A stretch of 64,000 nucleotides of DNA, from NCBI GenBank assembly GCA_016928555.1, contig JAFGKM010000033.1:2509-66508 (forward strand), given 5' to 3'. Source of the stretch: Candidatus Omnitrophota bacterium. Lineage in GTDB: Bacteria > Ratteibacteria > UBA8468 > B48-G9 > JAFGKM01. Positions 1-19,032 of the stretch are shown piece after piece. Made by a program: the position numbers and the translations under genes. A model generated the notes under the pieces. That model was given only the letters and a program-made list of their open reading frames with translations, had not been told where the DNA came from and did not search any database. The first letter of the stretch is position 1. The number at the start of each line of letters is the position of its first letter.

Positions 1-2309
1 GGATGCTGCATGTCGCACAGGTAAGCGCGCAGCTGCCCGCCAATATTCTTTGATAACAGTTTTATCCCCGTAATCTCGCTCATTGCCTCATCTGACAAAC
101 CGTTTTCCGTTATATATCCCGGCGCATATATCCACAGTGCGGTGCGTCCCTTCTGCCTTATAACCCGCCTTATGGATTCTTTTTCCTTCTCATTGAGCGC
201 AAACGTGTCAAGGAAGATGTACAGTTTGTAATCCGGCATATTATCCAGGTCCTGAAGAATATAACTGTCAAACGGCGCTCCTATCTTGGGTATCTGCTCA
301 AAATACTGCTTTGTGAGCACCGGCACGGTGACAGCGTTTGATGAGCGCAGGTATGTTACGGAACGCTGGTTGACTATCACCGCTATCTCAGCATTGCGTT
401 TCCGGTCGCGGTTGAGCGCTTCCTTATGCAGGTCGGCCATCTGTGCTATTGAGGGCATAATATCCTTGTGTTCAAACCAGACATTTCCGAAGTCAAGATA
501 CCACAGCGGGATCCCTTCGCTGATGGTGTAAGCGGAATTACGTTTTAAGATATTGGTTGTTTCCCACAGATTTCTTGCCCTGCCGTATTCAGAGTCTTCG
601 GTTGAAAGATGCGTTCTTGTATCGTCTTCCAGAATATACGTCTTGCCATGCAGGCGGAAAGAAGCCACAGTGGTTATGGGAACGGTTGAACCGCCGGGAT
701 AACGCACCCTGTACTGGTAGGCAGAGCCGCTTCCGTCTATGTGGGGGATATCAAGGAACTTGTCCAGCGCCTGGTGCCCTCGCTGGCTGAAATTGATGCT
801 GGGCCACATGAAGTGATATCCGTAGTGCGCAAATACAATGACTCTTCCGCCGGTAACGCGCTTGATTATCCCTGACATGTACTCTATTGCGGATACAACG
901 CTCTCATCATTGAAGCGTATATAATCTCCTATCCTGTTTCCTTTTCCTGCCGGGTCAAAGAATTCAAACTTGTCGCCTGTCAGCCGGTCGGAAACAGCCG
1001 GTATATCGGCAGTTGCTATGGACGCTTTCCGGTTCCATGCCCTGGACAGCGCTTCGTCGGTTCCGTACTTTTCAGTCAGCCATTTTCTGAATTCCCTGGT
1101 ATTGGTGACGCCGTAGTCATGAAACCGGTTGCCTGACGGATGCTCCCATTCCGGACCGAAAGCGTAAAGCATGTTGTAGCCGATTACCCTGTCGGCGTAA
1201 TCCGACTCCTCAATATGTCTTATGACGGCTTCAAGAAATTCCCCCGTATCTTTTCGCCATTTCTCGGACGAAAAAGATGCATACCACAGTTGTCCGGAAC
1301 CTCCCGCCGAATCTTTCCATATGCACATTTCTGAAGGGTTTGCCGCAATCCACCAGTCCGGCGGATTAAACACAACCCTGCCGATGATGTAAGCATCCGG
1401 CGACGTTGCCAGAATACTGCGCATATCGCTGTCCAGTTTTTCAAAGTCATACTGGCCCGGGCCTTTCCATAAGCCAACCTGACCATACCTGCTTGCCTGT
1501 ATGGCCGGCAATGATATATTTACTCCGGCCGAGGCAAATGTGGGTATATCTCCGGCAAGCTGTGCTCCGCTCCAGTTCTCGGCGCGAGGTTCGGAGAAGT
1601 CATCATGTAAAAGGATCCTTCCGTCAAGGTCTGTCACCTTAACAAAATTTACCGAGGAGATACTGTGATAGGCGCTTATGGTAAGACTGGCAGGCGGCAA
1701 GGGATTTTCGTCTATTTTTTCTCCGACAAGAGTCCCGTTGGCATAGCCGGAGATTTTGCCGCTATTTACAACAAGTTTGAGATTGACAGTTTCGCCTGTT
1801 TTCCAGTTCAGGGGCAGGGTGAACCATTTATCAAATTGAGATGCGCCCGGATGAGCCTTCCATAAATGGACAACATTCACGTCTTTTTCCCTGGATAAAT
1901 GGAAAAAATAACAGCCGGCAGGTGAATAATTGACCCACAGCACTATATTATTGCCGGTTCCGTCAGCGGTGAATTCTTCTATCGCAACCTCCGCCTCCAG
2001 CATGAAACTGTTCCCGAAGGAATTCGTGGATTTGACGCATCGGGATGTCATGCCGTACGTGCCCGGCCGGTTCTGCAGTCTTAGTTTCCCCCCGGAAACA
2101 GCGGGAAGGTTCTCCGCTGACTTAAAAGCATGCGCCTCATGCATCAGCGCGGTTGAAGGCTTGCCATTGATGAAAATAGCAGGTGCGCCCTTCCATTCCT
2201 TAATCTCCGCCCTTGTTTTTCCTTCTCCTTTTGCGGCCGCGGCTGTCAGCATAGTCACCCCCAGCATAAGCGTTACGATATTCAAACCCGTCCGTTTGTT
2301 TCTCTTCAT
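1..2309 (-). CDS. Exported GH42-like (clan GH-A) glycoside hydrolase paralog A with inserted beta-sandwich domain; 3' end runs off the window
   Basis: Not in the ORF track; translated by hand. ATG at 2309 after an AGG/GGAG-rich RBS, signal-peptide-like N-terminus (MKRNKRTGLNIVTLMLGVTMLTAAAA), motifs GAPAIFINGKP, YAFGPEWEHP, LEDDTRTH, KRNSAY. Same frame at both ends and colinear with 6883-9624. Confidence 0.85.
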   Translation of the reverse strand, partial: MKRNKRTGLNIVTLMLGVTMLTAAAAKGEGKTRAEIKEWKGAPAIFINGKPSTALMHEAHAFKSAENLPAVSGGKLRLQNRPGTYGMTSRCVKSTNSFGNSFMLEAEVAIEEFTADGTGNNIVLWVNYSPAGCYFFHLSREKDVNVVHLWKAHPGASQFDKWFTLPLNWKTGETVNLKLVVNSGKISGYANGTLVGEKIDENPLPPASLTISAYHSISSVNFVKVTDLDGRILLHDDFSEPRAENWSGAQLAGDIPTFASAGVNISLPAIQASRYGQVGLWKGPGQYDFEKLDSDMRSILATSPDAYIIGRVVFNPPDWWIAANPSEMCIWKDSAGGSGQLWYASFSSEKWRKDTGEFLEAVIRHIEESDYADRVIGYNMLYAFGPEWEHPSGNRFHDYGVTNTREFRKWLTEKYGTDEALSRAWNRKASIATADIPAVSDRLTGDKFEFFDPAGKGNRIGDYIRFNDESVVSAIEYMSGIIKRVTGGRVIVFAHYGYHFMWPSINFSQRGHQALDKFLDIPHIDGSGSAYQYRVRYPGGSTVPITTVASFRLHGKTYILEDDTRTHLSTEDSEYGRARNLWETTNILKRNSAYTISEGIPLWYLDFGNVWFEHKDIMPSIAQMADLHKEALNRDRKRNAEIAVIVNQRSVTYLRSSNAVTVPVLTKQYFEQIPKIGAPFDSYILQDLDNMPDYKLYIFLDTFALNEKEKESIRRVIRQKGRTALWIYAPGYITENGLSDEAMSEITGIKLLSKNIGGQLRAYLCDMQH

Positions 2310-2325
2310 TTTCCTCCCCCGTTTT

Positions 2326-2381
2326 AGAAAAAAGCCCCCTGCACGTTTATCATTAACTGCTCTTGCTTTTCTGCAGGGGGC
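2326..2381 (-). terminator. Intrinsic terminator-like hairpin between DUF1559-A and GH paralog A
   Basis: 10-bp stem GCCCCCTGCA (2334-2343) / TGCAGGGGGC (2372-2381) with 28-nt loop, followed on the minus strand by a T-run. Confidence 0.5.
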
Positions 2382-2386
2382 GGGTA

Positions 2387-3178
2387 TTACTCGAAATCCC
2401 AGAGGTTGTTCACGTTGCCGATACTTGTTGCTCCGCCCGCAAAAGGATAATGCAGGTAAGGGTTATTTGTTGATGTATAGGACTGGCAGCTCTTTGGTAC
2501 CGGAAGCGAATGCACAGAGGCATGGGCGTCGGCCCACAGGACGCAAACGGAACTGTTATGTCTTCCGTCAACACATCCGTTGTAGCTGTTGCGGACCCAC
2601 CACGGCCCTACGATATAATACCCGTACACTCCAACTGTGGTATCGTGATTCAAAGTGCTATCAGTAACAATTATCGTCTCGGACGGCCTCTTGATCCTGG
2701 GATATCTTACGGAGGAGTAATACCTTTCAATTGCAGGCGTGCCGCTCGGCTTCCAGTAAGCGGCTCCGATGTAGTAATGGTTGTAGCCGTAATGGCAATA
2801 CCATTTTCCTGAACTGCTTGTCCATGGCCTCTTGGCGTAGGATATTGTAAATTCATTTGAAGGACAATAGTAAATGGCCTCGCCCGGAAGATATTGCAGT
2901 TTTACCATCCTTGAATGCCATCCGATTGCAGGAGTATCTCCGCCCGTTTGCATATTCGGCATATAATCCATGTTGTCCTGTACGTACATCATAAAGGCCA
3001 GTCCCATCTGTTTCAGGTTGTTTATGCATACCGCCTGCCTTGCTTTTTCCCTTGCCTGTGACAGCGCCGGAAGAAGCATCGCCGCCAGAATGGCTATAAT
3101 GGCTACAACCACCAGAAGTTCTATAAGAGTGAAACCTCTGCCTCCAGCAAGTTTTCTGCGGATAGATTTTCTTTCCAT
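2387..3178 (-). CDS. DUF1559 prepilin-type N-terminal cleavage/methylation protein A
   Basis: G|[42 protein letters not shown]-terminal H-X9-DG-like [14 protein letters not shown]; start moved to 3178 (AAGGAGG RBS). Confidence 0.92.
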
Positions 3179-3237
3179 TTGCTTTCCCTCCTTTTCAATT
3201 TTTCGAAATCGCATACGCCAACTGTCATCCCAACTTT

Positions 3238-3266
3238 CTTATAACATATTTCTTTTAATTTGTCAA
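3238..3266 (-). promoter_or_regulatory. sigma70 promoter for DUF1559-A / GH-A unit
   Basis: TTGACA-N17-TATAAG with extended -10 TG on the minus strand. Confidence 0.7.
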
Positions 3267-3386
3267 GGCTTTTACAAAGCTTTTATAAAAATCGTTTTCG
3301 AATGAACAAAAAATCTTTCAGTAAAATTAAATATTTCTTTTTTTGCCTTTTGCCGGTTCAATCAGAAAGCCCCTGTTTTTTATATT

Positions 3387-5906
3387 TCAAAGGATTTCAA
3401 CATTCCGTTTACGTATTCCTGATAAAGGCAGTTTCAGAGCCTTCCCGAAGCCGACAGGATGCTGGAACGGCAGGCATTGCGAAAAGCGCACGGGGCATTT
3501 TTTGCAGGCAACGGCGTTTCTTGACAGGTCCTCGTAACCCGCAACCCACGCGGAAATTTCAGTTCCTGTTTCAGAGACGCCTTCCAGCGTGAGCCATATG
3601 CCGAACTGTCCCCCGTACGGTATGCGTGCGGAGAAATATCTTTCACCTTTGTTTATAGGAAAATCCATATTCCTCTTTTCTCCGTAGCCCGGGATTCCGG
3701 CGGAGATGGCTGTAACCGGCAGGAGATATTCGGATGTGCCGTCCATGGACCTTGATATGACTGCGCGCACTTTTATATCTGATTTTTCTTTAGCTTTTAT
3801 GCAGAACTGCAATTCGGAATCCTTCATTTTGTACGGTATCTCCAGCCGCCACATGTATTGAACGCCGTTGGGAAGTTTTTTCTTTTCCGCCGCCGCGCAT
3901 TTCATGGAATTAATTCGCTGTAAGGGATGAACCATCGGCTGTACTGATTTTGTAACTGTTGCGGAAGCGGGGAAGTAGCTCAAAAAATCCTTTCCTTTCT
4001 TCTTTACCATATACGGCAGGCTGTAAGGTTTTTTCCGTTTAACGGAAAAAAATATCACAATCTTTATCTCGTTGGCGAGGAAAGTGATACCTTTTTCCGG
4101 TTTAAGCGTCTCATAGCAGGGATAAAATTGTTCCGTGCTTTTGACTCTGTGGATTTCAATGTCTGACGGATTGAATTTGACGGTCTGCGGCACGGGGAGA
4201 GGGTTTCTCAATATGCACCATGATTCTTCTTTGCCCGGCTGGAGGAATCCGTACACCTCTCCGCGGCCGGGGTGTCCCAGTATCATCCTGCCGTGCGGCA
4301 CGAAGATGTGTTTTGCGTAAGTGCGACAGAATTCCATAACCTGTTTCAAGCTCTCCGCCTGCCAGTCCTCAAGGGCTTCAGGCGTTAAGGTATAGGCGAT
4401 TTGAGTACTGCCCCGCATGCAGTGCATCCATGCGGTATTGACCCAGGAAGCGGGGTCTTCGGGATAAGGGTTCTGGAGTGCGTTCGGAAACTTGAAATTA
4501 TCGAGGCAATCAAGCGGCAGGGGCGTTTTATCCCGCTGAAAAATGTTGTAGTACATCAGGTCCCTGTGGGTGGTGGATGCGGCGCGCTGCGTCCTGCCGG
4601 GAAGCGAACTGAATTCGGAATCCCCCGAATCCGAAAGATGGATATGGCTTGCATGCGGCATCCACCATGGCGAAGGCCACCAGCCGTTGCGCGTTACAAT
4701 CGCAGGGTTAATCTTCCGCAGTTCTGCGGCGATGCGGAAAAAGACATTCAGCGTCGCCTGCCTTACATGGTTCCGGGTAGGATATATTTCGTTAAACTTC
4801 TCATTGGTCGCGCAGTCATTGTCCCAGTCTATCTTGAGGTGTTTTACCTTCACTCTACGCACAAGTTCGCAAAATCTCTTCTCCACGGCTTTTGAAAACC
4901 TGCCGTCCATCATAACCCCGAAGCCGTCTCCGCTGTAAGTGGAGCTGTTGCCTGCGCCCGTTTCAAAACCCTGTTTTTTCATATATTCGGTTGCAATGCC
5001 CATAGGCCCGTTGTGGCTGACCCACAGACTCAACCCGCTTTTGTTTTTTTCCGCAAGTTTGCGCAATTTTATAAGACCGGCATCGCCTCCGACTTCTTTT
5101 TTCGCCTTAAAAATGCTCATCCTGTCCTGCCATCCGGCATCCAGCGTAAACAGGTCGGGCTTCAGACCGAGAGAAAAAAATGCCTTGAAATACATCTCGT
5201 AAACTTCATAGGAAGTCAGATAGCTGTACATGTTTTCATTATCTCTCGGGTCGGACCAGAACGTGCAGAAGATGAAAAGCGGTTTTTTGAGCAGGGGCAG
5301 GCGTATGGAGTCAAGATATTCGTCAAAGGTTTCGCGTGCGTTTTCTCCCCAGCCGAAGACTGCGGATACCTCTTGGAGCTTATTACCGTTCCAGACGGGA
5401 TGATGTACCAGCCGAAATTCCTCTTTATTGGATGAAAGGCGGTTGAATCCTGCCGGATGCTCCAGTCCCGTAAAGAAATGTTTTCCAATCAGCGGGTAGC
5501 CGCATCCCGGCATCGTTGCCGCCATGTCGGATTCGGAAAGGGTTGTCGGAATGTAGCCGCATGAACGCATATCGTCCGGGGGAATAACCTGCCGGTCAAC
5601 CTCCGCAAAATCAGGCGTGGGAAGTTTTTTCCCTGAGGAAACGGAGACGTTTTTTATAAACCATGAATTTTTTGAAAGGGTAATTGCTACGGTAAAAAGG
5701 AGCCCGTTTTCCTCAAAAGACTGGGAAATCCTGTTTTTTGAAACTGCTGGTTTGTCCAGCGGCACCGTCGGAGAAATCTTTTTCCCCCCTGTGGAGACGG
5801 ATACCGCCGGCCAGTCCATTTGAATTGTTTGCGACAACTTTTTATTGTGTACTGATAATTTACTGCCGTTTAACGAGATTGACAAATACGTGTTTTCTAT
5901 CTCCAT
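3387..5906 (-). CDS. Hypothetical glycoside hydrolase, clan GH-D-like (GH27/GH36 alpha-galactosidase-type barrel)
   Basis: 839-aa ORF; LFTLDAGWQD and HLKIDWD resemble the DDGW and KxD nucleophile motifs of clan GH-D. Confidence 0.6.
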   Translation of the reverse strand: MEIENTYLSISLNGSKLSVHNKKLSQTIQMDWPAVSVSTGGKKISPTVPLDKPAVSKNRISQSFEENGLLFTVAITLSKNSWFIKNVSVSSGKKLPTPDFAEVDRQVIPPDDMRSCGYIPTTLSESDMAATMPGCGYPLIGKHFFTGLEHPAGFNRLSSNKEEFRLVHHPVWNGNKLQEVSAVFGWGENARETFDEYLDSIRLPLLKKPLFIFCTFWSDPRDNENMYSYLTSYEVYEMYFKAFFSLGLKPDLFTLDAGWQDRMSIFKAKKEVGGDAGLIKLRKLAEKNKSGLSLWVSHNGPMGIATEYMKKQGFETGAGNSSTYSGDGFGVMMDGRFSKAVEKRFCELVRRVKVKHLKIDWDNDCATNEKFNEIYPTRNHVRQATLNVFFRIAAELRKINPAIVTRNGWWPSPWWMPHASHIHLSDSGDSEFSSLPGRTQRAASTTHRDLMYYNIFQRDKTPLPLDCLDNFKFPNALQNPYPEDPASWVNTAWMHCMRGSTQIAYTLTPEALEDWQAESLKQVMEFCRTYAKHIFVPHGRMILGHPGRGEVYGFLQPGKEESWCILRNPLPVPQTVKFNPSDIEIHRVKSTEQFYPCYETLKPEKGITFLANEIKIVIFFSVKRKKPYSLPYMVKKKGKDFLSYFPASATVTKSVQPMVHPLQRINSMKCAAAEKKKLPNGVQYMWRLEIPYKMKDSELQFCIKAKEKSDIKVRAVISRSMDGTSEYLLPVTAISAGIPGYGEKRNMDFPINKGERYFSARIPYGGQFGIWLTLEGVSETGTEISAWVAGYEDLSRNAVACKKCPVRFSQCLPFQHPVGFGKALKLPLSGIRKRNVEIL

Positions 5907-5928
5907 ATTAATGTTCCCGATTTAATTT

Positions 5929-6864
5929 TTATATCTGTTTTATGCAGGCGTCCGCTATCTCTGATAATGACCCCGTTGCAAGGCAGATACATTTATCCGC
6001 CCCCCCGTAGTACAAACGCAGTTCGTCTTTTTCCCCATCGGCTATCGCCCCGCATGCAAAAACCACATTATTGCTGACCCCGTTTATCTCATAATCCTTT
6101 TCCGGCGTCAACAGATAACTGATAGTTTTTCCTATTATCCTGCATGGATTTTCAATGTCCAGAAGAACAGCTCCGAGGCTGTAAAAATCAATACCTAAGG
6201 TTGTCCTGACGCCGTGAATAATGACCAGCCATCCTTTATCCGTCTTAATGGGCGGTGTAGGTCCTATCTTCTCACCTGCCCATCTTGTGTATCCAGGCGC
6301 AAGAAGAGGGCGGTAGCATCCCCAGTGTATCAGGTCGGGGGAGGAAGAGAGCCAGATGGAGCCGAACCCCCTTCCTGCCCGGGGACGGTCCAGTTTATAA
6401 TACTTGCCGCCGATTTTCTCGGGGAAAAGGGACGCTCCGCGGTTTTGCGGCAGGGTGATAATCTCAATTACCTCATAAGATTTGAAATCTTTTGTTTTTC
6501 CCAAAACGGTGCAGGGCACATCGTATTTCGCCGTGCCGACAGGTGTTAGAATATAGTAGGTATCGCCTATCTTTGTCACGCGGTTGTCAATAATGTGCTG
6601 GTTGACAATGTCATACGGGAACGGCTTATCGGCAAGGTTGATGAAGGAGCGGTCGTCAATTTTAAAGTGTATGCCGTCTTCGCTCTCGGCAACGCGAGTT
6701 TCCCCTCCCATGCTATTAAAGAAGCACATGGAAAGCAATAACACGGTCTTGTTTTTATACATCGCCGGACTTGGATTGAAAATCTGCGACACTCCGGGAT
6801 AATCCTCGGGTTTTATGAGAGGATTTGCGGGATGCCTTTTCAACATCTTCGTCGCGTCTTTCAT
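5929..6864 (-). CDS. GH130 family glycosidase/phosphorylase (DUF377)
   Basis: IFNPSP, DNRVTKI, KIGPTPPIKTDKGWLVIIHGV, NVVFACG, LYYGGAD motifs. Confidence 0.9.
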   Translation of the reverse strand: MKDATKMLKRHPANPLIKPEDYPGVSQIFNPSPAMYKNKTVLLLSMCFFNSMGGETRVAESEDGIHFKIDDRSFINLADKPFPYDIVNQHIIDNRVTKIGDTYYILTPVGTAKYDVPCTVLGKTKDFKSYEVIEIITLPQNRGASLFPEKIGGKYYKLDRPRAGRGFGSIWLSSSPDLIHWGCYRPLLAPGYTRWAGEKIGPTPPIKTDKGWLVIIHGVRTTLGIDFYSLGAVLLDIENPCRIIGKTISYLLTPEKDYEINGVSNNVVFACGAIADGEKDELRLYYGGADKCICLATGSLSEIADACIKQI

Positions 6865-6882
6865 TTCATGGCCTCCGGGCTG

Positions 6883-9624: not shown

Positions 9625-9676
9625 AAAGGACTCCTTTTTCCGCCAGAGGTTTTTACGATTGCAGTGTGGACGTTAA

Positions 9677-9710
9677 ACAAAAGCGCCACCGTCAAAGATG
9701 GCGCTTTTGT
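9677..9710 (-). terminator. Intrinsic (possibly bidirectional) terminator between DUF1559-B and GH paralog B
   Basis: ACAAAAGCGCCA-N10-TGGCGCTTTTGT 12-bp stem with A/T tracts on both sides. Confidence 0.75.
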
Positions 9711-9750
9711 CTAAATGATACTACCTTTCCCTCAAATATGCAATGTCAGA

Positions 9751-10503
9751 TTACTCTCTGTCCCAGAGGTTGTTTGCGCTTCCGATGCTTGATGCCCCTC
9801 CCGCGAACGGGTAGTAGAGGTAAGGGTTATTCGTTGAACTGTATCCCTTGGCAGTTTCCGGAGCCGATGTTGCGTGCGTGGATACATGTCCGTCGCACCA
9901 AAGAACAGTCGCGGCCTGGGAATGCCTGGCATCGACAATCCCCATCCAGTTTGCCGTGCTTGGAGTGGACCACCAGGGACTTACAATATAATATCCCTGT
10001 ATGCCTGTATTGGCGATGATGCAATAGGTGTCATCCGTAAGAAGGATTGTCTTTGACTGCTGTTTGACCTGCCCGAGTTTTGCGGGGGTATATCTCAGAG
10101 GGTCTCCGCTGGCCAGCCAGTAGGTGTTGCCGATATAATAGTAGTTGTATCCGTAGTGAGTGTTATAGCCGATGCTGCTGTTATAGAATGCATGCCTCAT
10201 TGAAGGACAGGCGAAGGCTTTGAGACTATTGACATAACCACCCTTCAGCAGTTGTCCGTGCCATGCATATGCCGCTGTATTGGTTCCGGTTGGATCTCTT
10301 GTGTCAGACGGCGGGAAATACTCGTTGTAGTCCTGCAGGTACATCATGAAAGAGAGTCCCAGCTGTTTCAGGTTGTTTATGCACACCGCCTGCCTTGCCT
10401 TCTCTCTCGCCTTGGACAGCGCCGGAAGAAGCATCGCTGCCAATATAGCTATGATTGCCACCACCACCAGTAACTCTATCAGCGTAAATCCTTTTCTTTT
10501 CAT
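9751..10503 (-). CDS. DUF1559 prepilin-type N-terminal cleavage/methylation protein B
   Basis: MKRKG|[46 protein letters not shown]; paralog of 2387-3178. Confidence 0.92.
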
Positions 10504-10522: not shown

Positions 10523-10600
10523 TGTCATCCCGTACTTGATACGGGATCTCATCCTTTATTCTCTATCCTTGATCCCTTCCTACTATCCGAAGGGATGACA
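10523..10600. repeat. REP/RPE-like palindromic element
   Basis: TGTCATCCC-GTACTTGATAC-GGGATC ... GATCCC-N15-GGGATGACA: two internal hairpins framed by inverted termini. Confidence 0.65.
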
Positions 10601-10653
10601 CAAAACGTCACTTATCACTAAACACTTTATTTCTGTCGTCACCTCCTTTTTCG

Positions 10654-11094
10654 TTATTCCGCTTCAATCAACTGTACAGGTCCCGCAACATCCATGCTCT
10701 TCTGGCCTTCCGGCAGTACCGGAACCATTGCGTTCGCTACAGCTCCGCAAACCGGGCATTTGGGCCATGTGGGCGGAGTTATTTCGCCCATTACTTGAGG
10801 AGAAGCAGGCATTTCTTCCGTACTCTCAATAATAGGTTTTTCTTTCACTCCAAAGACAGCCTCGCAGTTCAGGCATTTCAGAGCAGGATAGGCATTATTG
10901 CCTTTGCTGAAAGGAGAACTCGTGGGATATTCAACAGCCGCATTTGATGATATTCTTTTAACGAACACCTTGTTTGCCTGCGTATCCACAAGAATTCTTT
11001 CATAACTGGCTTGCTGGCCCATGGATTTTACCAGCGCCGCAAGCGCAATAAGAATGACAACAACAAGAACTATTTGTTTTCCTTTGTTCTTCAT
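10654..11094 (-). CDS. Small membrane-anchored protein with two CxxC motifs (putative Zn-ribbon), first gene of DUF1559-B unit
   Basis: Basic N-terminus then hydrophobic helix (IVLVVVILIALAALV); CLNC and CPVCG motifs; GGAG RBS. Confidence 0.75.
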   Translation of the reverse strand: MKNKGKQIVLVVVILIALAALVKSMGQQASYERILVDTQANKVFVKRISSNAAVEYPTSSPFSKGNNAYPALKCLNCEAVFGVKEKPIIESTEEMPASPQVMGEITPPTWPKCPVCGAVANAMVPVLPEGQKSMDVAGPVQLIEAE

Positions 11095-11165
11095 CCTGTT
11101 CAGTCTCCTTATACTTTAATAAGAAAACGCATTCGTTGTATTTTCTCTTATCTATATTCAAGAGC

Positions 11166-11194
11166 ATTATAACATGTAATCATTAATCTGTCAA
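11166..11194 (-). promoter_or_regulatory. Consensus sigma70 promoter
   Basis: TTGACA-N17-TATAAT with extended -10 TG on the minus strand. Confidence 0.8.
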
Positions 11195-11312
11195 GCCCCT
11201 TTTTAAATCGTTTTCGCATAAATTGACAAGGAATCTCTGAAAAACTTTCTGTGTCGTCATTGAATGAAGAAGCTTATGCTTGATGCTTGTCATTACCTTT
11301 TCAGTAACTTAA

Positions 11313-14027
11313 TTATCCCATGAAGAGCCAGCCTGAGTCGGCGGGATTGTCCGTCCCAAACCGCAGTCTGTATTCCCATGGATGCAGAGAAATCCACGCG
11401 GCATTGCCGTGAATGACGTTTATTCTCATTGGCCTATCCGTTGAATAATAACCTTCAAAAACTACAAAAGGGATTGACATGACGGCTTTCCATGATTTAT
11501 TACTCTTTGAAATTACCGTTCGCCACCGGTTATCTTCAATAGTCTTAAAATTATCATGACGCGTATCCCCATTTTTAGATACTTGAAAGGTCTGCGCAGG
11601 CCACAGCCGGCACGGTTCAATTTTCAGCGTTATCTGACCATCGCCATCCTTGCATTGGACTTCAAAGGAGATATTATCCCTGTCATGCCATGCTTTCCAC
11701 TTTGTTCTTCCATCATCAAGCGTTTCCCACAGACTGCTGTTTTTTTCTCTGGCTGCAGTGTATTTTTTCCCTTCAGGAGCTTCCCCCGTATATACGGAAA
11801 AAAGTTTTTCTCCGGCATCTATCATTTTTTCAACTTCAGGGAAATCTTCCCGGAGAAGGTCTTTCAGAATTTCTGCGCGCCATTTGAGTTTCGCCGGAAA
11901 ATATTTGTAACCCTCGGCTTCCGAGTGGAAGCCAAGCCTGGAATCCGTGAGACACAGCTCCCTGAGCGATAAAGAATTTTTTATTTCGGCAGAGACAATA
12001 CCCTTCATAATCTCCAAACTGTTCTTCTGTTCTGCAATATCCAGATAAGGAAGCGCTTCTCGCAAATCATAAAAACGGAAAAAGTTGTAAGCACTGCTGA
12101 ACTGGATGTTTAAAGCCTTGGCCAGGCCGATATCAAGCATGCGTTCGTGGTTATTGCTGTATTCCGGTTCAATCGCTTGAAGGATTTTTACTCCCCTGTC
12201 CCAGTTTTCAGCCATCTGTTTAAGAAGCACAAGTATTTCCTGCAGGGTATGGTCGTAACAGATGCATTCACCTATCCTGTCCCCGCTTTCCTGCGGGAAA
12301 GTAAACTTCCAGCTCGGCGATATCGGGGCATCAACGGGTTTCAGGTAAAGTTGCCACACCACAGAATTATGGACAGGTCCGTACCATGCAAAACTCAAAT
12401 TGAAAGGAAAACTTGAATATCCCTTTTGGAACCATTTCCATGCGCTTGCCGCTTTTTCAGCGTCTGTTCCCCAATCTCTATGCGCAAGTTTTAAAAGGAA
12501 TTCGTCTTCATCCGGCGGAAACGGGAGAAAAGAAAGTTCGCCGGCAGCTTTGTTCATCAGTCCCGGGTAATTGCCGAAATACCAGCACTGCATAACGGAG
12601 GTTACCTTAAGCTTCCGCATCGCACTGTATTTTTTGTATAGATTTCCCGGCACCGGAACAAAAGGCACGGTTGCAACTTCATGGGAACAGCCTACCTGTA
12701 TCTTTGCCGAGACGCAGGCTCCGTTTCTTGCGGCGCTTTTTGCGCAATCTTTAAAAATCCTGCCCGGACCCGGCCATGCGAGCCAGTAGTCAAGCAGAAG
12801 GCGTTCCTTGCCTGCCTGTATTTCTTTTCCGCCGGATTCAAAATTATATTGGAATATTACGTCGTCCGGCATGTTGGCGGCTATTTCCCTGATAACCTTT
12901 TCAGTTTCTCCTGCCGAATTTTTGTCTTTTCCGTGTATTGCCGGCACATACAGCCATGAAATCATTTCTGCTGCGGGGTTTGCCCTGTGCATGCCTGCAG
13001 CTATTGCGGATGCCGTATCGTAAAAAACCTCCCATGGTTTTCTTTTTGAGCATCTGGGGCAGTTATTGTTGAAGAAATTCGCTGTGCTTGAATAACAGTG
13101 GGTCGGTCTTTCCCCGAGATTTATGTCTATAATGCCGCCTAGGCCCGGCACGGAAGAAAAGAGGTAATAAGCGGATTCTTCAAGATATTCCCGTCCTTCC
13201 CTGGAAGAAGTGCAGAAGTATGTTGTATCTCCCTGTCGGTGTCCCGCAAAATATTTGTTTTTGTTCAATTCTTCCGCAGGCAGAAGATATTCGGGGGTTT
13301 TCCCGAAACCGCGGGGTTCAATGCAGAAAAGATATAATTTTATTCCGTACAGAGCGCATTTTGTGACGGTTTTGTTGAGTTTTTCAAGACGCCTGAATCT
13401 ATCTCTGCCGTGTCCGGGAAAGAATTTTGAAGGGCATAAATCGCTGAACTGTACCGTGAGCCATAGGCCGTTAACAGCTTCATGTGCGAGGCGGTTCAGG
13501 TATTCTTCCGGATAATAGTCGGTATCGTCAGCAAGTTCATCGCGGTTCATCGGCGGGCGTTTTATCGGGCCGAAAAAACACCTGGATATCCTGGTTTTTA
13601 TAAAAGGGCTTCTTTTGTATCCGCCGGTTTTAAGAAACGGGCCTCCGCTCCTTTGAATCTCGTCCTCTACGAAAACAAGGCCCCTGCGGATGCCTTCCGT
13701 ATCGCCGGCAATTATTCTGCAGGAATCTTCGGCAACATCCACCGTGAAGCTTTCAAAAGAACGGGTCCGGGCTTTTTCGGTAATGATTTTATACGGCCCT
13801 CTGCCTATACCGCATGCTTTCAGAAACTGCCTGAAGTCCGCGTATGCGGATAAGAGGTTTTTATCTGCGAAAAGGAAGTCCAATGCTACACCGCATTTGA
13901 GAACCGCTTCCCCTTCTTTTTTTTGATTACGGTTTAAAAGGATTTTTTTGTGAAGGGGCGTTTGCAGTTCCCGTATGAATTTCCAGTTTTTTTCAGCCGG
14001 CTGTCCGGGGCTCTGTCCTGCAGGCAT
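11313..14027 (-). CDS. Large hypothetical protein, glycoside hydrolase-like (GH20/GH67-type N-terminal domain, barrel, C-terminal CBM9/DOMON-like tail)
   Basis: Long ORF; start placed at 14027 (GAGGGA RBS just after the upstream stop); IIAGDTEGIRRGLVFVE resembles GH20/67 domain 2; family assignment tentative. Confidence 0.55.
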   Translation of the reverse strand: MPAGQSPGQPAEKNWKFIRELQTPLHKKILLNRNQKKEGEAVLKCGVALDFLFADKNLLSAYADFRQFLKACGIGRGPYKIITEKARTRSFESFTVDVAEDSCRIIAGDTEGIRRGLVFVEDEIQRSGGPFLKTGGYKRSPFIKTRISRCFFGPIKRPPMNRDELADDTDYYPEEYLNRLAHEAVNGLWLTVQFSDLCPSKFFPGHGRDRFRRLEKLNKTVTKCALYGIKLYLFCIEPRGFGKTPEYLLPAEELNKNKYFAGHRQGDTTYFCTSSREGREYLEESAYYLFSSVPGLGGIIDINLGERPTHCYSSTANFFNNNCPRCSKRKPWEVFYDTASAIAAGMHRANPAAEMISWLYVPAIHGKDKNSAGETEKVIREIAANMPDDVIFQYNFESGGKEIQAGKERLLLDYWLAWPGPGRIFKDCAKSAARNGACVSAKIQVGCSHEVATVPFVPVPGNLYKKYSAMRKLKVTSVMQCWYFGNYPGLMNKAAGELSFLPFPPDEDEFLLKLAHRDWGTDAEKAASAWKWFQKGYSSFPFNLSFAWYGPVHNSVVWQLYLKPVDAPISPSWKFTFPQESGDRIGECICYDHTLQEILVLLKQMAENWDRGVKILQAIEPEYSNNHERMLDIGLAKALNIQFSSAYNFFRFYDLREALPYLDIAEQKNSLEIMKGIVSAEIKNSLSLRELCLTDSRLGFHSEAEGYKYFPAKLKWRAEILKDLLREDFPEVEKMIDAGEKLFSVYTGEAPEGKKYTAAREKNSSLWETLDDGRTKWKAWHDRDNISFEVQCKDGDGQITLKIEPCRLWPAQTFQVSKNGDTRHDNFKTIEDNRWRTVISKSNKSWKAVMSIPFVVFEGYYSTDRPMRINVIHGNAAWISLHPWEYRLRFGTDNPADSGWLFMG

Positions 14028-14037
14028 TTTGTTTCCC

Positions 14038-16854
14038 TCAGTTTGACTCCAGCCACCACATCTTTGTTTCATATTTTTCAAGATTAACGGAAAATGAAGT
14101 TGTTTTTTCAGAGACAACCTCTCCGCTGAATGCATCAACTACCTTTACCGGTACGGGCAATTTTATCGTTCGTTTGCCGGCATATCTCGCATGTATGGAC
14201 AACATGGATTTGTTTGCGCACAGGAAGTCTTCGCTGTCGCTGTATACATGCACGCCTGCGTACTCTGCTATACCGCGAAGCAAAGAAGCGGGTAGATTTG
14301 GGACGCCGCACCATATTGACCGCCAACTGCCGTTTTCTTTGACCGCTAACCCGGGGCCGTATTCCATCCCTGTTTTAAACGTCCCGTCGGGATGAGTGCC
14401 TGAGTATGCCGCGTACATGCCCAAAACATCGGCCTGGTTGTCCGCGCATTTAATAATCGGTCCCATATGCCGGTCCACTCCGAAACGCAGTCCCGGCGGG
14501 CATCTTCTTGTGATTGGATGGTCAAAGTCGCAGAGGTATAAACTCAGTTGCCCTCCTGCATCCTGAGGTTCCAGTTCAATCCCCGTTAATTCCGCCATCG
14601 CTTCTTTGCTGAATCCTTCTTCAGTAACGTATCCCGGAGCAAATATCCACAATGCGGTTGCGTGTTCCCGCCTGACTTTTTCCATGACCGTTTTCCTCTG
14701 CTCATCAGTCATGTAGAAAGTGTCAAGAAAGATGTACAGCTTGTACTGCGGTATCCGAGCAATATCCTCAATCAGATACATGTCAAAAGGCGCTCCAATC
14801 CTCGACATTTCATTGTAGACCTGATGCGGCATAAGGTTGTTCAACAGCGAAGCGGTATTGGAGTCCGCCTTAAGGAAAAAATGCGAACGCTGGCTCACAA
14901 TCACGGCAATTTCAGCGTTCCGGGAGCGGTCGCGCCGCAAAGATTCTTCGCCTATCTTTTCAATCCTGCCTATGTTTTCCATCGTAGCCCTGTCTTCCAG
15001 CCAGCCCAGCCCCCAATCCACCCACCAAAGGGATTCTGCCTCAGATAAGGCATAGGCAAAATTGCGCTTGTGAACATTGACCGTTTCCTCAGCCGTGTTT
15101 GTACGGCCGTAACTCGTGTTCTCACCTGAGATGTGCGTGCGGGTATCGTCCTCCCCCCAGAAGAATTTGCCGTGCAGGCGCATTGAACCGGCAACTCCCG
15201 AACCATACATGGACATCCCTCCCGGCTGGCGTTCGCGGTATTGAAAGGGTGCGCAGAGTGCATCAACATCGGGAGATTCCAGCACGCTCAGCATGGCGTG
15301 GTGTCCGCGGCTGTTATAGTTCACTGGAGCGTCTGCGGGTATGTGGTATCCGAAGAAAAACAGCGTAAGCCGCTTCCTGTCAGTTTCCTCCTTGATGGCT
15401 TTTGCAAAAAAACATATAAGGTCGGAGACGCTCTCAGCATTGAACTGAAGGTAATCCGCAACCTTGTTGGCGCCTCTTGCCGGGTCCTTGAAGTTATAAA
15501 AATCTCCCTGTCTGCGTTCTTCCGCCGTAGGAATATCGGCAGTGTTGAGCGTAACGCTTTTATCGCGCCAAGATTTTTGCAGCCCGTCATCGGTTCCGTA
15601 CCTGGCTTTCAGCCAACCGCGGAACGTCCGGCGCGATACCTCGCTGTAATCATAAAACCTCTCGCCGCTCTCAAAGAGCCATTCATACCTGCCGTAGTCA
15701 AGGTTATAGCCGATAATTCTTTCCCCGAAGGTAGAGCTGTTATGATGGCGGATAACCTGCCTGACCGCCTCGCCCCCCTCTTCTCTCCATGTTTCTGACG
15801 GATAGCTCACAAAACGCATACTGACGAGCGCCTTGCCGTTGGAATCAAGCACCTCCTCGTCTGTATGCGAGTTTATCCACCAGTCAGGGGGAAGCAGACG
15901 CCACCGTATGAGAAAACGCGCCTCTGCATCGCTCTCAAGAATGTTTTTGAATTTTTTATCCATGCTGGAAAAATTGAAAGCGTTCGGTCCGTACCACACC
16001 CCGTACCGGAAGTCGAGAGTGACCAGGTAGATGTGTACGCCCTGACCGGAAAAAGCCATGCCTGATTCAGGCGGGCCAAGAGTCTTGATTTGCCCCGGAT
16101 TTGCCAGGTCCCCCCTCCACAGTTTCGGGTTTGCCATGGTAAAATCATCTTCAAACAGCACTTTGCCGTCAATGGTTGAAATACGTATGTCGTCAACCGT
16201 ACTGCATGTATGGAAAACGCTGAATGCGGCTTGACTGACAGGCAAAGGCTCTTCTAAGTCTTCCTTTTCGGCAACAGGATTTCCATCCACGAACGCGGAA
16301 ATTTTATTTCCGTCAATAACCATTTTAAGGCGGTAAAGCCTGCCGGTTTCCCAGTTGAATGGAATGTTAAACCACCGCTCATAGTCGCGGTGATATTTTA
16401 AAAAAGAGATGCATCTTTCGCCTGAAACTTCTTCCAGCCCCAGGAAGTAAAAACTCCGGCCAGCACTAGCCTGGATTGAGACGTTTGCGCCTCCTTCAAA
16501 TACTTCCCTGACGGCAACAGCCGCTTCAATTACAACCGGGCCGTCCAATTTGCAGTTTGCCGTCAGAGAGCGGTTCGTGTACCAGTTCGGCAGGCATGTC
16601 AGCACAAGCCGTCCATTTTCCACATACGGCCTCGGCTTTGTCTCCTCCCCCATGAGTCCCGTGCGCGTCTTGCCGTCCAGGTAAAAAGCAGGGGAACCGT
16701 TAAGCATTTTTATTTCCGCTTTAGGCCCCGGACAGGGAACTTTTTGCGGATAAGGTACAGCCGCCTGTATGCCTGCGGCTTCAGAAGAGACAAAAAGCAA
16801 ATTACCAAACAGCGCAAAATACCACATGTACCGCATCAATTTTGTTTTTGACAT
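14038..16854 (-). CDS. Exported GH42-like glycoside hydrolase paralog C with inserted beta-sandwich domain
   Basis: Signal peptide; NGSPAFYLDGK, YGRYEW, GEDDTRTH, KRNFAY; colinear with paralogs A and B but more diverged. Confidence 0.8.
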   Translation of the reverse strand: MSKTKLMRYMWYFALFGNLLFVSSEAAGIQAAVPYPQKVPCPGPKAEIKMLNGSPAFYLDGKTRTGLMGEETKPRPYVENGRLVLTCLPNWYTNRSLTANCKLDGPVVIEAAVAVREVFEGGANVSIQASAGRSFYFLGLEEVSGERCISFLKYHRDYERWFNIPFNWETGRLYRLKMVIDGNKISAFVDGNPVAEKEDLEEPLPVSQAAFSVFHTCSTVDDIRISTIDGKVLFEDDFTMANPKLWRGDLANPGQIKTLGPPESGMAFSGQGVHIYLVTLDFRYGVWYGPNAFNFSSMDKKFKNILESDAEARFLIRWRLLPPDWWINSHTDEEVLDSNGKALVSMRFVSYPSETWREEGGEAVRQVIRHHNSSTFGERIIGYNLDYGRYEWLFESGERFYDYSEVSRRTFRGWLKARYGTDDGLQKSWRDKSVTLNTADIPTAEERRQGDFYNFKDPARGANKVADYLQFNAESVSDLICFFAKAIKEETDRKRLTLFFFGYHIPADAPVNYNSRGHHAMLSVLESPDVDALCAPFQYRERQPGGMSMYGSGVAGSMRLHGKFFWGEDDTRTHISGENTSYGRTNTAEETVNVHKRNFAYALSEAESLWWVDWGLGWLEDRATMENIGRIEKIGEESLRRDRSRNAEIAVIVSQRSHFFLKADSNTASLLNNLMPHQVYNEMSRIGAPFDMYLIEDIARIPQYKLYIFLDTFYMTDEQRKTVMEKVRREHATALWIFAPGYVTEEGFSKEAMAELTGIELEPQDAGGQLSLYLCDFDHPITRRCPPGLRFGVDRHMGPIIKCADNQADVLGMYAAYSGTHPDGTFKTGMEYGPGLAVKENGSWRSIWCGVPNLPASLLRGIAEYAGVHVYSDSEDFLCANKSMLSIHARYAGKRTIKLPVPVKVVDAFSGEVVSEKTTSFSVNLEKYETKMWWLESN

Positions 16855-16910
16855 AACCGCTCCCTGTTAAAAAAATATAGGGACCTTTTCCTCTTCCTGT
16901 TTTCAATAGC

Positions 16911-16939
16911 TTTATAACATTCAGGCGCAAATTTGTAAA
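16911..16939 (-). promoter_or_regulatory. sigma70 promoter for GH paralog C unit
   Basis: TTTACA-N17-TATAAA with extended -10 TG on the minus strand. Confidence 0.6.
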
Positions 16940-16978
16940 GGTTTTTAAAAAACGGTTTAAAATAAAGTAAAATTGCTG

Positions 16979-17006
16979 TTGACAGAAAGAACCGGAGGTA
17001 TATAAT
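16979..17006 (+). promoter_or_regulatory. Divergent sigma70 promoter for 17089-19032
   Basis: TTGACA-N16-TATAAT. Confidence 0.6.
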
Positions 17007-17029
17007 ATGCAGAATAAAAAAATTCTTTT

Positions 17030-17068
17030 AAATCCCCTCCTTGGAAAAAGGAGGGATAGGGAGGATTT
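17030..17068. repeat. C-rich/G-rich hairpin repeat (family A)
   Basis: AAATCCCCTCCTTGGAAAAAGGAGGGATAGGGAGGATTT; related copies at 19196, 19409, 35598, 43321, 44580. Confidence 0.6.
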
Positions 17069-17088
17069 GCGCGGGGGAGAGCGAACAA

Positions 17089-19032
17089 ATGAAGAAAATA
17101 GAAAAGACTGCAAAAGGGTGGCGGTTGAAGGGCGGCAATCTTATACTGGATATTGACGGCGCTTCGGGAGAACTGAAATCTCTAATTGTTGATACAGGCA
17201 GGAAATTCGTATGGACTCCTGATAAGGGAACTGTCTCCGTTTCCGACGACTTTACGGGAAAGAAATATACCGGCAAGGATATTAAGAGAATAAAATTTGA
17301 ACTCAAAGGAGATGTTTTAACTCTTTCAAAATATTTCAAGGATGCGCCTTTTCTGTTGACTGAAAAATACAGCGTTGAAGACGAAGTTATCCACTGGACT
17401 TCGCGGCTGGATATGGACAAGGGCGAATTCCGCTCCTGCTCAATAGTTTATTCAATACCGTGGCCCCAGCCCGCGTACGGAAATAACTTGTGGGCGGCGA
17501 AGGATAACATGCCTTCGGAACTGGGGCGTTTCGGCGGCTTTGCGTTTGAGTACGGGGAGATTACCAGCGGAATTCTCATCCCCGCGCTGTGCGCCTGGCG
17601 CAAGAAGGAGGATGCAGGCCTTCTCCTTGCCATGCCTTTTGATTTCAAAGCGCCCCGTTTCCGGTTTGTCGGCGGTTTCCGCGAGCCGGCTCTTTATGTC
17701 AGGTACGACTGGCTGGCGCTTAAGGCAGGCAAGCCTGCTGAAGCGAGCCTTCTCCTTCGCGCCGCTTCCGGCGGCTGGCGTCCGTCGCTCGGCTGGCTCT
17801 ATAAAAGGTTCAGGGAATATTTTGAGCCGCGTTCCAAGAACATCCATAACCTGTGGGGCGGCCATATATGCGGTACATACGACGTCCCTTTGAAGAAAGC
17901 GCGCATAATGGCGGAGCTCGGCTGTAAGTGGCATGAGATTCATGCACATTTCCCCTTTTACGGAAACTACCATCCGGAAGGAATGAAAAGTTGGAGTACC
18001 GGCCATCCGATGCGCGTTTCCAAAGCCCATCCGGATATTTCGGTTGAACTCATCAAAAAGAGTATAAAGAACCTGCATAATGCCGGAGTGGCGGCAATGC
18101 CTTACATTCAGGTTGCAGGAGACGGGGACGATAAATTGCCGGCGGCTATTTTGAATAGGTCGCTCATAAAGGATATTTACGGGGAAAAGGTTTCGGCATG
18201 GCCCGGAACACACATGATGAACTCCGACCTGTCTCTTCCTTTCGGAAAAGATATGGTAAGGCAGATAAAAGGTATGGTCTCCCGCTATCCGGAGATGGAC
18301 GGCGTTTTTCTTGACCAGGCGTGCTACAATTTTCTTGACACCGCCCACAGCGACGGGATTACCGCGGTCGGCAACAGGCCGGCCTATATGACCGGCTTCA
18401 ATTATGCGCCTCAGCTGGAATTGCTTTCAGGCTTACTGCATCCTGAAAAGGTCATCATCGGCAATGGACCGTTCAGCATAGGGATTATGAAATATATTGA
18501 CGGGTTCATGGCGGAATGTGAAAGCTGGCTGAACGACCATTTGCAGTATTATGCCATTGCAAAACCGATGTTCTTCCTTACGTGGGGGAAAAGCGGCCGC
18601 TCTCTTGAAAAAATGTTCCAGAGCTGTATTTTTTACGGCGCCGGGTTTACGAGCAACCCCGAGGTTTACAAATCTTCAAAGGATATATTTGACATGTACA
18701 TGCCTGTGCTCCAATTGTTATACAGGCGGCGCTGGGTTTTTGAGAACAACCCCATTGAAGTGCCGTATGGATATAAAGGCAGTCTCTTTTCCAGTTCGAG
18801 GGGGACGCTTGTCGCAGGCATTGTGAGCGAAACGGTGCGCACTATGCCGCCTCCGTTCCGGTCGGAGACGGTTCATATCAATGCAAAGGCGGCGAAGAAG
18901 ACGCACAGGGTTGTTCTGCACGAACCGGGGCAGAAGCCGAGGGATATAAAGTTTTCCTGCAAAGAGGAGGGGCTGGAGTTTGATGTTCCGGGAGCAACTG
19001 TCGCCGCCGTAGCCGAACTCATAACGGCTTAA
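17089..19032 (+). CDS. Hypothetical cytoplasmic glycoside hydrolase-like protein (DUF6259-like barrel)
   Basis: 647 aa from ATG 17089; the upstream in-frame TTG lies in a repeat. MDGVFLDQ resembles the nucleophile strand of retaining GH barrels; no signal peptide. Confidence 0.5.
   Translation: MKKIEKTAKGWRLKGGNLILDIDGASGELKSLIVDTGRKFVWTPDKGTVSVSDDFTGKKYTGKDIKRIKFELKGDVLTLSKYFKDAPFLLTEKYSVEDEVIHWTSRLDMDKGEFRSCSIVYSIPWPQPAYGNNLWAAKDNMPSELGRFGGFAFEYGEITSGILIPALCAWRKKEDAGLLLAMPFDFKAPRFRFVGGFREPALYVRYDWLALKAGKPAEASLLLRAASGGWRPSLGWLYKRFREYFEPRSKNIHNLWGGHICGTYDVPLKKARIMAELGCKWHEIHAHFPFYGNYHPEGMKSWSTGHPMRVSKAHPDISVELIKKSIKNLHNAGVAAMPYIQVAGDGDDKLPAAILNRSLIKDIYGEKVSAWPGTHMMNSDLSLPFGKDMVRQIKGMVSRYPEMDGVFLDQACYNFLDTAHSDGITAVGNRPAYMTGFNYAPQLELLSGLLHPEKVIIGNGPFSIGIMKYIDGFMAECESWLNDHLQYYAIAKPMFFLTWGKSGRSLEKMFQSCIFYGAGFTSNPEVYKSSKDIFDMYMPVLQLLYRRRWVFENNPIEVPYGYKGSLFSSSRGTLVAGIVSETVRTMPPPFRSETVHINAKAAKKTHRVVLHEPGQKPRDIKFSCKEEGLEFDVPGATVAAVAELITA

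Follow-up and report, generated by a model that had tools for sequence, protein, structure and literature searches.

A DUF1559 prepilin-like gene precedes an exported GH42-like enzyme in two tandemly duplicated modules of a carbohydrate-active-enzyme cluster

Organization of the cluster and its duplicated modules

Positions 1-19,032 of the 64 kb window (the whole stretch of contig JAFGKM010000033.1 that was analysed) are a chromosomal carbohydrate-active-enzyme (CAZyme) cluster of ~19 kb. Open reading frame (ORF) listing and domain scans of its 10 proteins placed nine genes on the minus strand and the last, encoding a 663-aa protein, on the plus strand. Within the cluster lie two paralogous modules, tandemly duplicated, each composed of a sigma-70 promoter, a DUF1559 prepilin-like gene, a terminator-like hairpin and a gene for an exported enzyme resembling glycoside hydrolase (GH) family 42. 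We refer to the prepilin-like proteins as pilins A and B, and to the GH42-like enzymes as GH-A, GH-B and GH-C. The strict prepilin motif FTLIELLVV occurs in only two copies in the 64 kb, each directly upstream of a GH42-like gene.

Module A is read from promoter A at 3238-3266(-), which has the sequence TTGACA-17-TATAAG with TGn, and carries the 12-mer CGAAAACGATTT upstream at 3289-3300(-). The 9-mer GGGATGACA lies at 3223-3231(-), between the -10 box and the ribosome-binding site of pilin A. Pilin A (263 aa; 2387-3178(-)) has a predicted cleavage site between GGRG and FTLIELLVV, and its C-terminal motif reads H-x9-DA instead of DG. Its start at 3178 was proposed by a first-pass annotation, which was made from the sequence alone, and a GGAGG ribosome-binding site indeed precedes that ATG. 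Hairpin A (2328-2381(-); 10-bp GC stem, 28-nt loop, U6) stands between pilin A and GH-A (1-2309(-)), an exported GH42-like glycosidase that is truncated by the window edge (complete protein, 927 aa).

Module B is read from promoter B (11166-11194(-); TTGACA-17-TATAAT), which matches sigma-70 at 12/12 positions, has an extended -10 (TG) and carries CGAAAACGATTT upstream at 11205-11216(-). The first gene encodes a small protein of 146 aa (10654-11094(-)) with an N-terminal transmembrane helix and two CxxC pairs that are predicted to face the periplasm. There follow the leader of pilin B, with the inverted pair TGTCATCCC ... GGGATGACA (10523-10600), pilin B itself (250 aa; 9751-10503(-); predicted cleavage between KRKG and FTLIELLVV), hairpin B (9673-9714(-); 18-bp stem, U-rich tail, z = -2.9) and GH-B (6883-9624(-)), an exported GH42-like protein of 913 aa and a predicted lipoprotein. 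The small CxxC gene had been counted as part of the repeated unit. Promoter, pilin, hairpin and GH do occur twice in the same orientation on the minus strand, whereas the small CxxC gene is present in unit B only. The third exported paralog, GH-C (14038-16854(-)), has no pilin upstream.

The promoters of both modules are near-consensus, and the 12-mer that precedes each is identical. GGGATGACA is present in four copies in the window against 0.29 expected, including those at 3223-3231(-), 10523-10531(-) and 10592-10600(+). It occurs in both pilin leaders, and forms an inverted pair ahead of pilin B. GGGATGACA and CGAAAACGATTT may be operator sites of a regulator that was not seen in the window. 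No riboswitch or known RNA was detected in the pilin leaders with Rfam. Both intergenic hairpins are real and resemble intrinsic terminators.

DNA identity between units A and B is 60-90% and spans pilin and GH alike, so the two units represent one old block duplication, and the window counts as one independent observation, not two. The third GH paralog named in the first-pass annotation was borne out: GH-A and GH-B are 77% identical at the protein level, and GH-C is 43% identical to GH-A. Synonymous divergence between the duplicated modules is saturated (dS > 1), so that dN/dS cannot speak to positive selection. In their 3' parts (window 1-900 versus 7310-8200; GH-B residues 621-760), GH-A and GH-B share 95% protein identity at a dS of only 0.39. 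This low value, compared with dS > 1 elsewhere in the block, suggests gene conversion between the paralogs.

The pilins were previously described as having the same ends and a different middle, and the segment identities agree: the two proteins share 87% of their residues in segment 1-60, 41% in 61-215 and 69% in 216-250. The globular part has a dN of 0.64 compared with 0.15-0.23 for the enzyme, such that this part is diverging 3-4 times faster. Aromatic residues make up 16-17% of the pilin globular domain, versus ~9.5% in other window proteins.

Family, conserved residues and predicted fold of the pilins

Both pilins exceed the Pfam gathering thresholds for N_methyl and for DUF1559/SBP_bac_10 (PF07596). 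The PF07596 scores are 38.7 and 59.7 bits against a cut-off of 23.3, and cover only profile positions 2-57 of 268. N_methyl and TIGR02532 score above their cut-offs, and both proteins have a class III signal peptide. Together with the invariant F+1 and E+5, these matches uphold the earlier statement that DUF1559 proteins carry type IV pilin N-termini. G-1, F+1, E+5 and P+22 are kept in both pilins and are invariant among 83 relatives, as are residues F, T, L, I and E of the prepilin motif and P27 (equivalent to +22). Pilin B also carries the H-X9-DG signature, as H194-x9-D204-G205. Residues R193, H194, N199, D204, G205 and H206 are conserved in the 83 relatives, H194 and D204 being invariant and G205 conserved in at least 90%. 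The H-X9-DG assignment comes from motif reading, since no H-X9-DG model came up in the NCBIfam scan. The search with pilin B gave more than 7,900 relatives; those with a name belong to Calescamantes, Ratteibacteria and Omnitrophota, and bear the JGI label 'prepilin-type processing-associated H-X9-DG protein'.

Pilins A and B thus belong to the DUF1559/SBP_bac_10 family by above-threshold Pfam matches and, for pilin B, by the H-X9-DG signature. They differ from the family at large in that the globular part is a divergent subfamily, beyond the reach of the matched profile positions, in the DA of pilin A in place of DG, and in a host that looks Ratteibacteria/Omnitrophota-like rather than from the classical phyla. 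Published genomes of Planctomycetota, Verrucomicrobiota and Lentisphaerota hold 60-100 copies each. Of genes of this kind, the proteome study of Tuwongella remarks that they are 'often flanked by genes containing signal peptides' (PMC8567305). A full-text literature search, in which DUF1559 turned up in four papers only, found no tested function for DUF1559/H-X9-DG proteins, which are treated as expanded, unknown or 'solute-binding'.

The AlphaFold 2 (AF2) model of pilin B (pLDDT 88, pTM 0.86) consists of an N-terminal helix of ~50 residues (8-58) and a small sheet (strands 117-120, 153-160, 188-190, 197-202 and 207-211), with long loops and an irregular C-terminal tail. Foldseek found no structural relative of the globular part, and the matches of a sequence profile of pilin B to PilA, geopilin and GspG are confined to the N-terminal helix. 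We also considered a solute-binding protein fold for pilin B and rejected it: the model shows one small sheet packed against the long helix where such a fold would have two lobes, and Foldseek gave no binding-protein match. As modelled, the fold of pilin B is a pilin lollipop, unlike the solute-binding fold implied by the SBP_bac_10 name and by older papers.

A close comparison is with the pseudopilins of the type II secretion system (T2SS), GspG/PulG. Pilins A and B share with them the class III signal peptide, the residues G-1, F+1, E+5 and P+22, and a helix that matches GspG and PilA. They are not GspG itself, as they score 42.6 and 37.1 bits against the TIGR01710 cut-off of 88.85, over residues 1-65 only, and have no T2SSG domain match. 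The globular domain of ~190 aa is unrelated to that of T2SS pseudopilins by sequence or by Foldseek. Finally, there are tens of DUF1559 paralogs per genome, one per enzyme module, compared with one pseudopilin of this kind per secreton.

In the archaeal bindosome (the Sulfolobus Bas system), sugar-binding proteins carry prepilin signals and are true solute-binding proteins of ABC transporters. By analogy, the pilins could be non-polymerizing, membrane-anchored partners, acting in the periplasm on behalf of the enzyme or its products, as chaperone, scaffold or binding protein. The window resembles the bindosome in linking prepilin-type proteins to the acquisition of sugars and not to motility. 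Annotations have long called the family solute-binding, and its thousands of paralogs are far above any known filament's use. In the proteome study of Tuwongella, moreover, DUF1559-type proteins fractionate with membranes (PMC8567305). However, the pilin model does not have a periplasmic-binding-protein fold, no ABC transporter adjoins the pilins in the window or in most related loci, and E+5 and P+22, which are important for filament assembly, are invariant. We regard a membrane-anchored, non-polymerizing partner as unlikely.

The exported GH42-like enzymes

All three GH paralogs pass the PF02449 (GH42) model, weakly and over a partial profile (40 bits versus 21). By sequence reading, GH-A and GH-C have type I signal peptides, and GH-B has the lipobox LASC. 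In the AF2 model of GH-B (pLDDT 90.6), an N-terminal ConA-like beta-sandwich (residues 30-245) precedes a three-domain body that superposes on GH42 enzymes (3tts; Foldseek E 9e-27, TMt 0.69, ~735 columns, 12-16% identity). The GH-B family profile matches GH42 chains in the PDB at 4e-17.

GH42 beta-galactosidases and alpha-L-arabinopyranosidases have the same TIM barrel, trimerization-type domain and beta-sandwich that are predicted for the GH-B body. Two Glu residues of GH-B are candidates for the catalytic acid/base and nucleophile, which in GH42 stand at the ends of strands 4 and 7: E374 (conserved in 21/23 sequences) comes after the predicted strand 362-368 and E548 (20/23) after the predicted strand 544-549. 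The differences from GH42 are the low identity, the matching by sequence of only half of the barrel, the additional N-terminal ConA-like beta-sandwich and the signal peptide or lipobox. GH42 enzymes are mostly cytoplasmic. On the basis of the modelled GH42 fold and the conserved E374 and E548, it is plausible that GH-B is an active enzyme.

A scan of 185,579 species genomes with a query alignment of 10 sequences located 141 relatives (loci) of the GH42-like family in more than 10 phyla. The closest relatives are labelled Armatimonadia. In Bacteroidota loci (L018, L029, L031, L035, L070 and others), the family repeatedly adjoins a GH127 beta-L-arabinofuranosidase-type gene; GH127 accounted for 5/51 neighbouring proteins scanned in seven Bacteroidota loci, and hints at the substrate of the GH42-like family. 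Neither SusC nor SusD was among the common neighbours in the Bacteroidota loci. The idea that the pilin functionally replaces SusCD would have gained support had the Bacteroidota members of the family lain in SusCD polysaccharide utilization loci (PULs); they do not, and have GH127 as their recurrent neighbour.

Recurrence of the pilin-first arrangement in other genomes

ORFs were called in 80 of the 141 GH42-like loci and searched with pilin B. Pilin relatives were found in Lentisphaerota loci only, where 5/9 evaluable GH42-like genes had a pilin gene immediately upstream on the same strand (L003, L073, L079, L080 and L081, from metagenome-assembled genomes). Loci L079 and L081 are orthologous, giving 4/7 independent cases. 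With a background of ~1-2% of genes, which corresponds to 60-100 DUF1559 copies per published genome, the binomial P is ~1e-6 to 1e-5. The first-pass annotation had looked to relatives for a statistical linkage between DUF1559 and GH genes, and these cases provide it.

The linkage extends to the partners of the closest pilin relatives. Of the clade pilins with context, 14/15 directly precede a signal-peptide protein (GH42-type, GH123+CBM9, FG-GAP or unknown); these comprise all nine clade pilins of the window and the Lentisphaerota loci, and 5/6 closest pilin relatives. Locus L080 (LacI, amidohydrolase, pilin, 1290-aa GH42, pilin, 983-aa GH42-like) reproduces the window architecture, each tandem exported enzyme having its own pilin. 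Where exported enzymes stand in tandem, as in the window and L080, there is one pilin for each, whereas the cytoplasmic enzymes of the same clusters have none. Locus L073 is of a rhamnogalacturonan type, in the order AraC, GH106, pilin, GH42-like, GH43, GH78, GH2-like and GH78, with no transporter. Among the closest pilin relatives, L170 (GntR-type regulator, pilin, CBM9+GH123) and L171 (pilin, CBM9+GH123, 870-aa protein) pair the pilin with a GH123 enzyme. In L165, the order is LacI, pilin and a 1656-aa protein, with a divergent pilin, 421-aa, 628-aa and CBM9 protein series, and L167 holds a pilin and a 491-aa protein. The sole partner without a signal peptide is the DJ-1/PfpI protein of L168, which likewise follows a pilin. 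LacI, GntR or AraC regulators are often near pilin modules.

It should be noted that in L165 (5984-12741) and L164 a LacI gene separates two operons that diverge from it and each begin with a pilin gene (pilin, 1656-aa, 681-aa; and pilin, 421-aa, 628-aa, CBM9). The large proteins of these operons all have signal peptides and match no Pfam family.

For background, we used metagenomic DUF1559 genes sampled at random from across the family, not close relatives. Among the matches listed, 35/46 pilin genes had a same-strand gene within 300 nt. These neighbours include sulfatases, beta-helix proteins, esterases and CarboxypepD_reg proteins, and FG-GAP partners were also seen; some downstream genes in the sample are housekeeping genes. 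The order 'pilin first, exported protein next' recurs in unrelated bacteria, and the pilin-enzyme linkage exceeds chance.

These data bear on the simplest alternative, that there is no functional coupling, DUF1559 genes being merely abundant and the window pattern being one block duplication. Units A and B are indeed a single duplication, genomes can carry 60-100 copies, and the housekeeping neighbours in the random sample fit such a view. Nevertheless, it does not account for the independent Lentisphaerota cases, for the 14/15 signal-peptide partners, or for a published pseudopilin inside an induced cluster (PMC13274419), and we consider it very unlikely.

That published case comes from a 2026 study of Verruconatronum alginivorum, in which a pulG-like pseudopilin with 67 paralogs lies inside an alginate-induced lyase cluster, and another pseudopilin was over-expressed on alginate by proteomics; the authors suggest T2SS export (PMC13274419). 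The likeness to the window is a multi-copy pseudopilin within a substrate-induced, polysaccharide-degrading cluster. The differences are the phylum and the polysaccharide lyase (PL) family enzymes, and the likeness to pilins A and B is by description. The pseudopilin-cluster phenomenon has hence been glimpsed before and not analysed, and the mechanism of the pilins is so far a proposal only.

Specificity of the pilin-enzyme association

In a tree of the globular domains, pilins group by lineage and not by partner enzyme. Identity of pilins A and B to pilins ahead of GH123 or unknown proteins is 30-40%, and falls to 15-30% for the Lentisphaerota pilins located upstream of GH42-like genes. The congruence of pilin and GH trees expected by the first-pass annotation was not found, as the closest relatives of pilins A and B precede GH123/CBM9 proteins or unknowns. 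Members of the GH42-like family in Acidobacteriota, Chloroflexota, Bacteroidota, Planctomycetota, Verrucomicrobiota and Armatimonadota are pilin-less. As read from these trees and neighbourhoods, the pairing is a habit at the level of lineages that takes in many exported enzymes, and not an ancient pilin-GH42 partnership.

The same evidence weighs on the possibility that the pilin is a glycan-specific, lectin-like subunit of a type IV pilus (T4P)/T2SS-like fibre that captures polysaccharide for its partner enzyme, a pilus-based, non-SusCD analogue of a PUL. Cellulose- or xylan-binding type IV pilins are known in Ruminococcus and Caldicellulosiruptor. A capture fibre would suit the variable, aromatic-rich globular domain that evolves 3-4 times faster than the enzyme, the sugar-type regulators that adjoin many modules, and clusters such as L073 with many GHs, one pilin and no transporter. 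The terminator would also favour an excess of pilin, as for a structural subunit. On the other hand, pilins also stand ahead of enzymes that do not act on glycans and of exported proteins of unknown kind, a pilin goes with each exported enzyme and not with each cluster (L080 and the window), and co-phylogeny with the GH is lacking. The GH42-like family of Bacteroidota is likewise outside SusCD loci, and uptake across the inner membrane is impossible for a fibre. We rate the capture fibre as somewhat unlikely. Because the partners include sulfatases, esterases and FG-GAP proteins, the data point to an enzyme-directed rather than a glycan-directed role.

The idea that each pilin is a filament subunit dedicated to its partner enzyme, as the first-pass annotation proposed, is consequently upheld in part. 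Linkage was found and the processing and assembly residues are kept, but there is no co-phylogeny and the partners include non-glycosidases.

Other genes of the cluster and the window

The remaining genes of the cluster encode proteins without a signal peptide by sequence reading. Two of them, for GH130 and the 839-aa protein, come after module B. GH130 (5929-6864(-)), of the beta-mannoside phosphorylase or hydrolase type, matches PF04041 at 2.8e-42 over profile positions 31-318 of 320, and is below the NCBIfam equivalog cut-offs. The 839-aa cytoplasmic protein (3387-5906(-)) had no family match in a single-sequence search. A profile of 40 relatives, drawn from a search of 1.84 billion representatives, matches the GH36 alpha-galactosidase 2xn0 at 3.5e-11, and K358 and D360 (the K-x-D nucleophile motif) are invariant in the family. 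The protein is thus distantly GH36-like, of clan GH-D, and represents a candidate new GH-D family. The family comprises ~440 representative clusters and is recognized by no Pfam model. Both GH130 and the GH-D enzyme had been named in the first-pass annotation, and the profile searches agree with it. The same annotation had read the 904-aa (11313-14027(-)) and 663-aa (17041-19032(+)) proteins as two further GH-like giants; searches of Pfam, NCBIfam and PDB sequences gave no match for either. The 663-aa gene has its own 12/12 promoter at 16979-17006. None of the 167 fetched loci contains a homolog of the small CxxC protein, of GH130 or of the 839-, 904- or 663-aa protein, so that none of these five is a conserved companion of pilin or GH.

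No transporter domain was found in any of the 10 proteins of the cluster (Pfam and NCBIfam scans). Neither a SusC-like TonB-dependent transporter nor a SusD-like lipoprotein is among them, consistent with the earlier statement that the 19 kb hold no TonB/SusCD or ABC transporter. The cluster is accordingly not a Bacteroidota-type PUL. It resembles such loci in its co-localized, probably co-regulated GHs, and in having surface or lipoprotein enzymes upstream of cytoplasmic ones, and differs in lacking SusC/SusD, a TonB-dependent receptor or another transporter. A DUF6922/AbiEii nucleotidyltransferase toxin-antitoxin-like pair lies directly after the cluster, at 19571-20478(+).

The rest of the window is ordinary chromosome, with gltX, cysS, serA, dnaE and surA-pdxA-ksgA, among which T2SS-type genes are scattered. 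A GspE-type ATPase gene (53713-55389(-)) stands alone, with no GspF or secretin adjoining, and has an MshEN domain, which we take to be of the cyclic di-GMP-binding type. GspG-like ORFs lie at 24506-25012 and 57808-58542, and a GspH ORF at 30983-31468 is followed by one ORF with no family assignment. A weakly J-like ORF is also present, as is one with an HHH_3 motif that is K-like by position only. Of the GspE and GspG/H/I/J/K set previously assigned to the window, GspE, GspG-like and GspH were thus recovered, dispersed rather than together; the J-like assignment is weak and the K-like one positional. No prepilin peptidase gene was seen in the window.

DnaE has its best named relatives in Candidatus Ratteibacteria (75% identity) and Omnitrophica (74%). 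In the NCBI taxonomy, Ratteibacteria is an unplaced candidate phylum, while Omnitrophota is in the PVC group. The PVC setting of the first-pass annotation is therefore only loosely right, in so far as Omnitrophota sits in that group; the host is probably related to Ratteibacteria/Omnitrophota and, from DnaE, probably belongs to no classical PVC phylum. An origin in Armatimonadota, suggested by the Armatimonadia label of the nearest GH relatives, was rejected on these DnaE identities. We also observed a tRNA gene at 44683-44755(+), within the 5' end of the long ORF 44592-45530. This gene, of the inositol monophosphatase family, probably has its true start downstream of the tRNA.

Proposed role of the pilins

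The reading that we favour, tentatively and as possible rather than probable, is that each pilin is a module-specific, pseudopilin-like accessory of its exported enzyme, serving export through, or tethering on, a shared T2SS/T4P-like machinery. An enzyme-directed role is favoured because the partner is nearly always an exported protein, because pilins go one to each exported enzyme of a tandem and none to cytoplasmic enzymes, and because the partners include non-glycosidases. The predicted lipoprotein nature of GH-B and the T2SS-type genes in the window were counted as further support.

Under the accessory hypothesis, the prepilin peptidase of the cell would cleave the pilin-like protein, which would then be handled by a shared machinery of the GspE/GspG-K type. 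The pilin would help the neighbouring enzyme to cross or leave the envelope, or tether it at the surface on a short fibre. The near-invariant N-terminal helix would plug into the common machinery, and the fast-evolving, aromatic-rich globular part would confer specificity. The hairpin would allow more pilin than enzyme to be produced. A transporter with its gene elsewhere would import what the exported enzymes release, and degradation would be completed in the cytoplasm by GH130 and the GH36-like enzyme. The first-pass annotation had proposed that the pilin system also served uptake. This has no support: pili and pseudopili do not extend across the inner membrane, and the cytoplasmic location of GH130 and the GH36-like enzyme points to an inner-membrane transporter whose gene lies elsewhere.

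A precedent for a secretion machinery with a lipid-anchored glycosidase as substrate is the Klebsiella Pul secreton, a T2SS with the lipoprotein substrate pullulanase PulA. The likeness to the window is a pilin that is co-located, and probably co-regulated, with an exported lipid-anchored glycosidase, and the presence of GspE and GspG-K type genes in the genome.

Several observations weigh against the accessory role. GH-C, about half of the Lentisphaerota GH42-like genes and the family members of other phyla are without a pilin, so there is no inherent need for one. A 1:1 adaptor would be poorly served by a terminator that separates its gene from that of the enzyme. The aromatic-rich globular domain fits glycan binding equally well. 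No secretin or GspF was seen in the window. Finally, published work labels the DUF1559 family 'solute-binding', albeit without structural support.

A broader extension of these ideas, which we also think unlikely, is that a single heteropolymeric envelope fibre is built from DUF1559/H-X9-DG proteins as exchangeable subunits induced by substrate, each CAZyme operon supplying its own. If so, the fibre would present a changing set of glycan-binding heads or tethered enzymes, a 'pilus-PUL' of Lentisphaerota, Omnitrophota-like and related bacteria that are without SusCD.

Implications

Besides the pilins, this work delimits a divergent GH36-like family and a widespread, divergent GH42-type family with no characterized member (141 loci in more than 10 phyla). 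The DUF1559/H-X9-DG proteins are among the largest uncharacterized paralog families in bacteria, and are now experimentally approachable. Genomic context and sequence conservation partly support a pseudopilin-family protein as an operon-specific accessory of exported hydrolases: the pilin gene comes first, before Sec-exported hydrolases, one for each, often with sugar-type regulators, and the assembly residues are kept. The family thereby gains a concrete candidate role in how polysaccharide degraders that lack SusCD deploy their enzymes.

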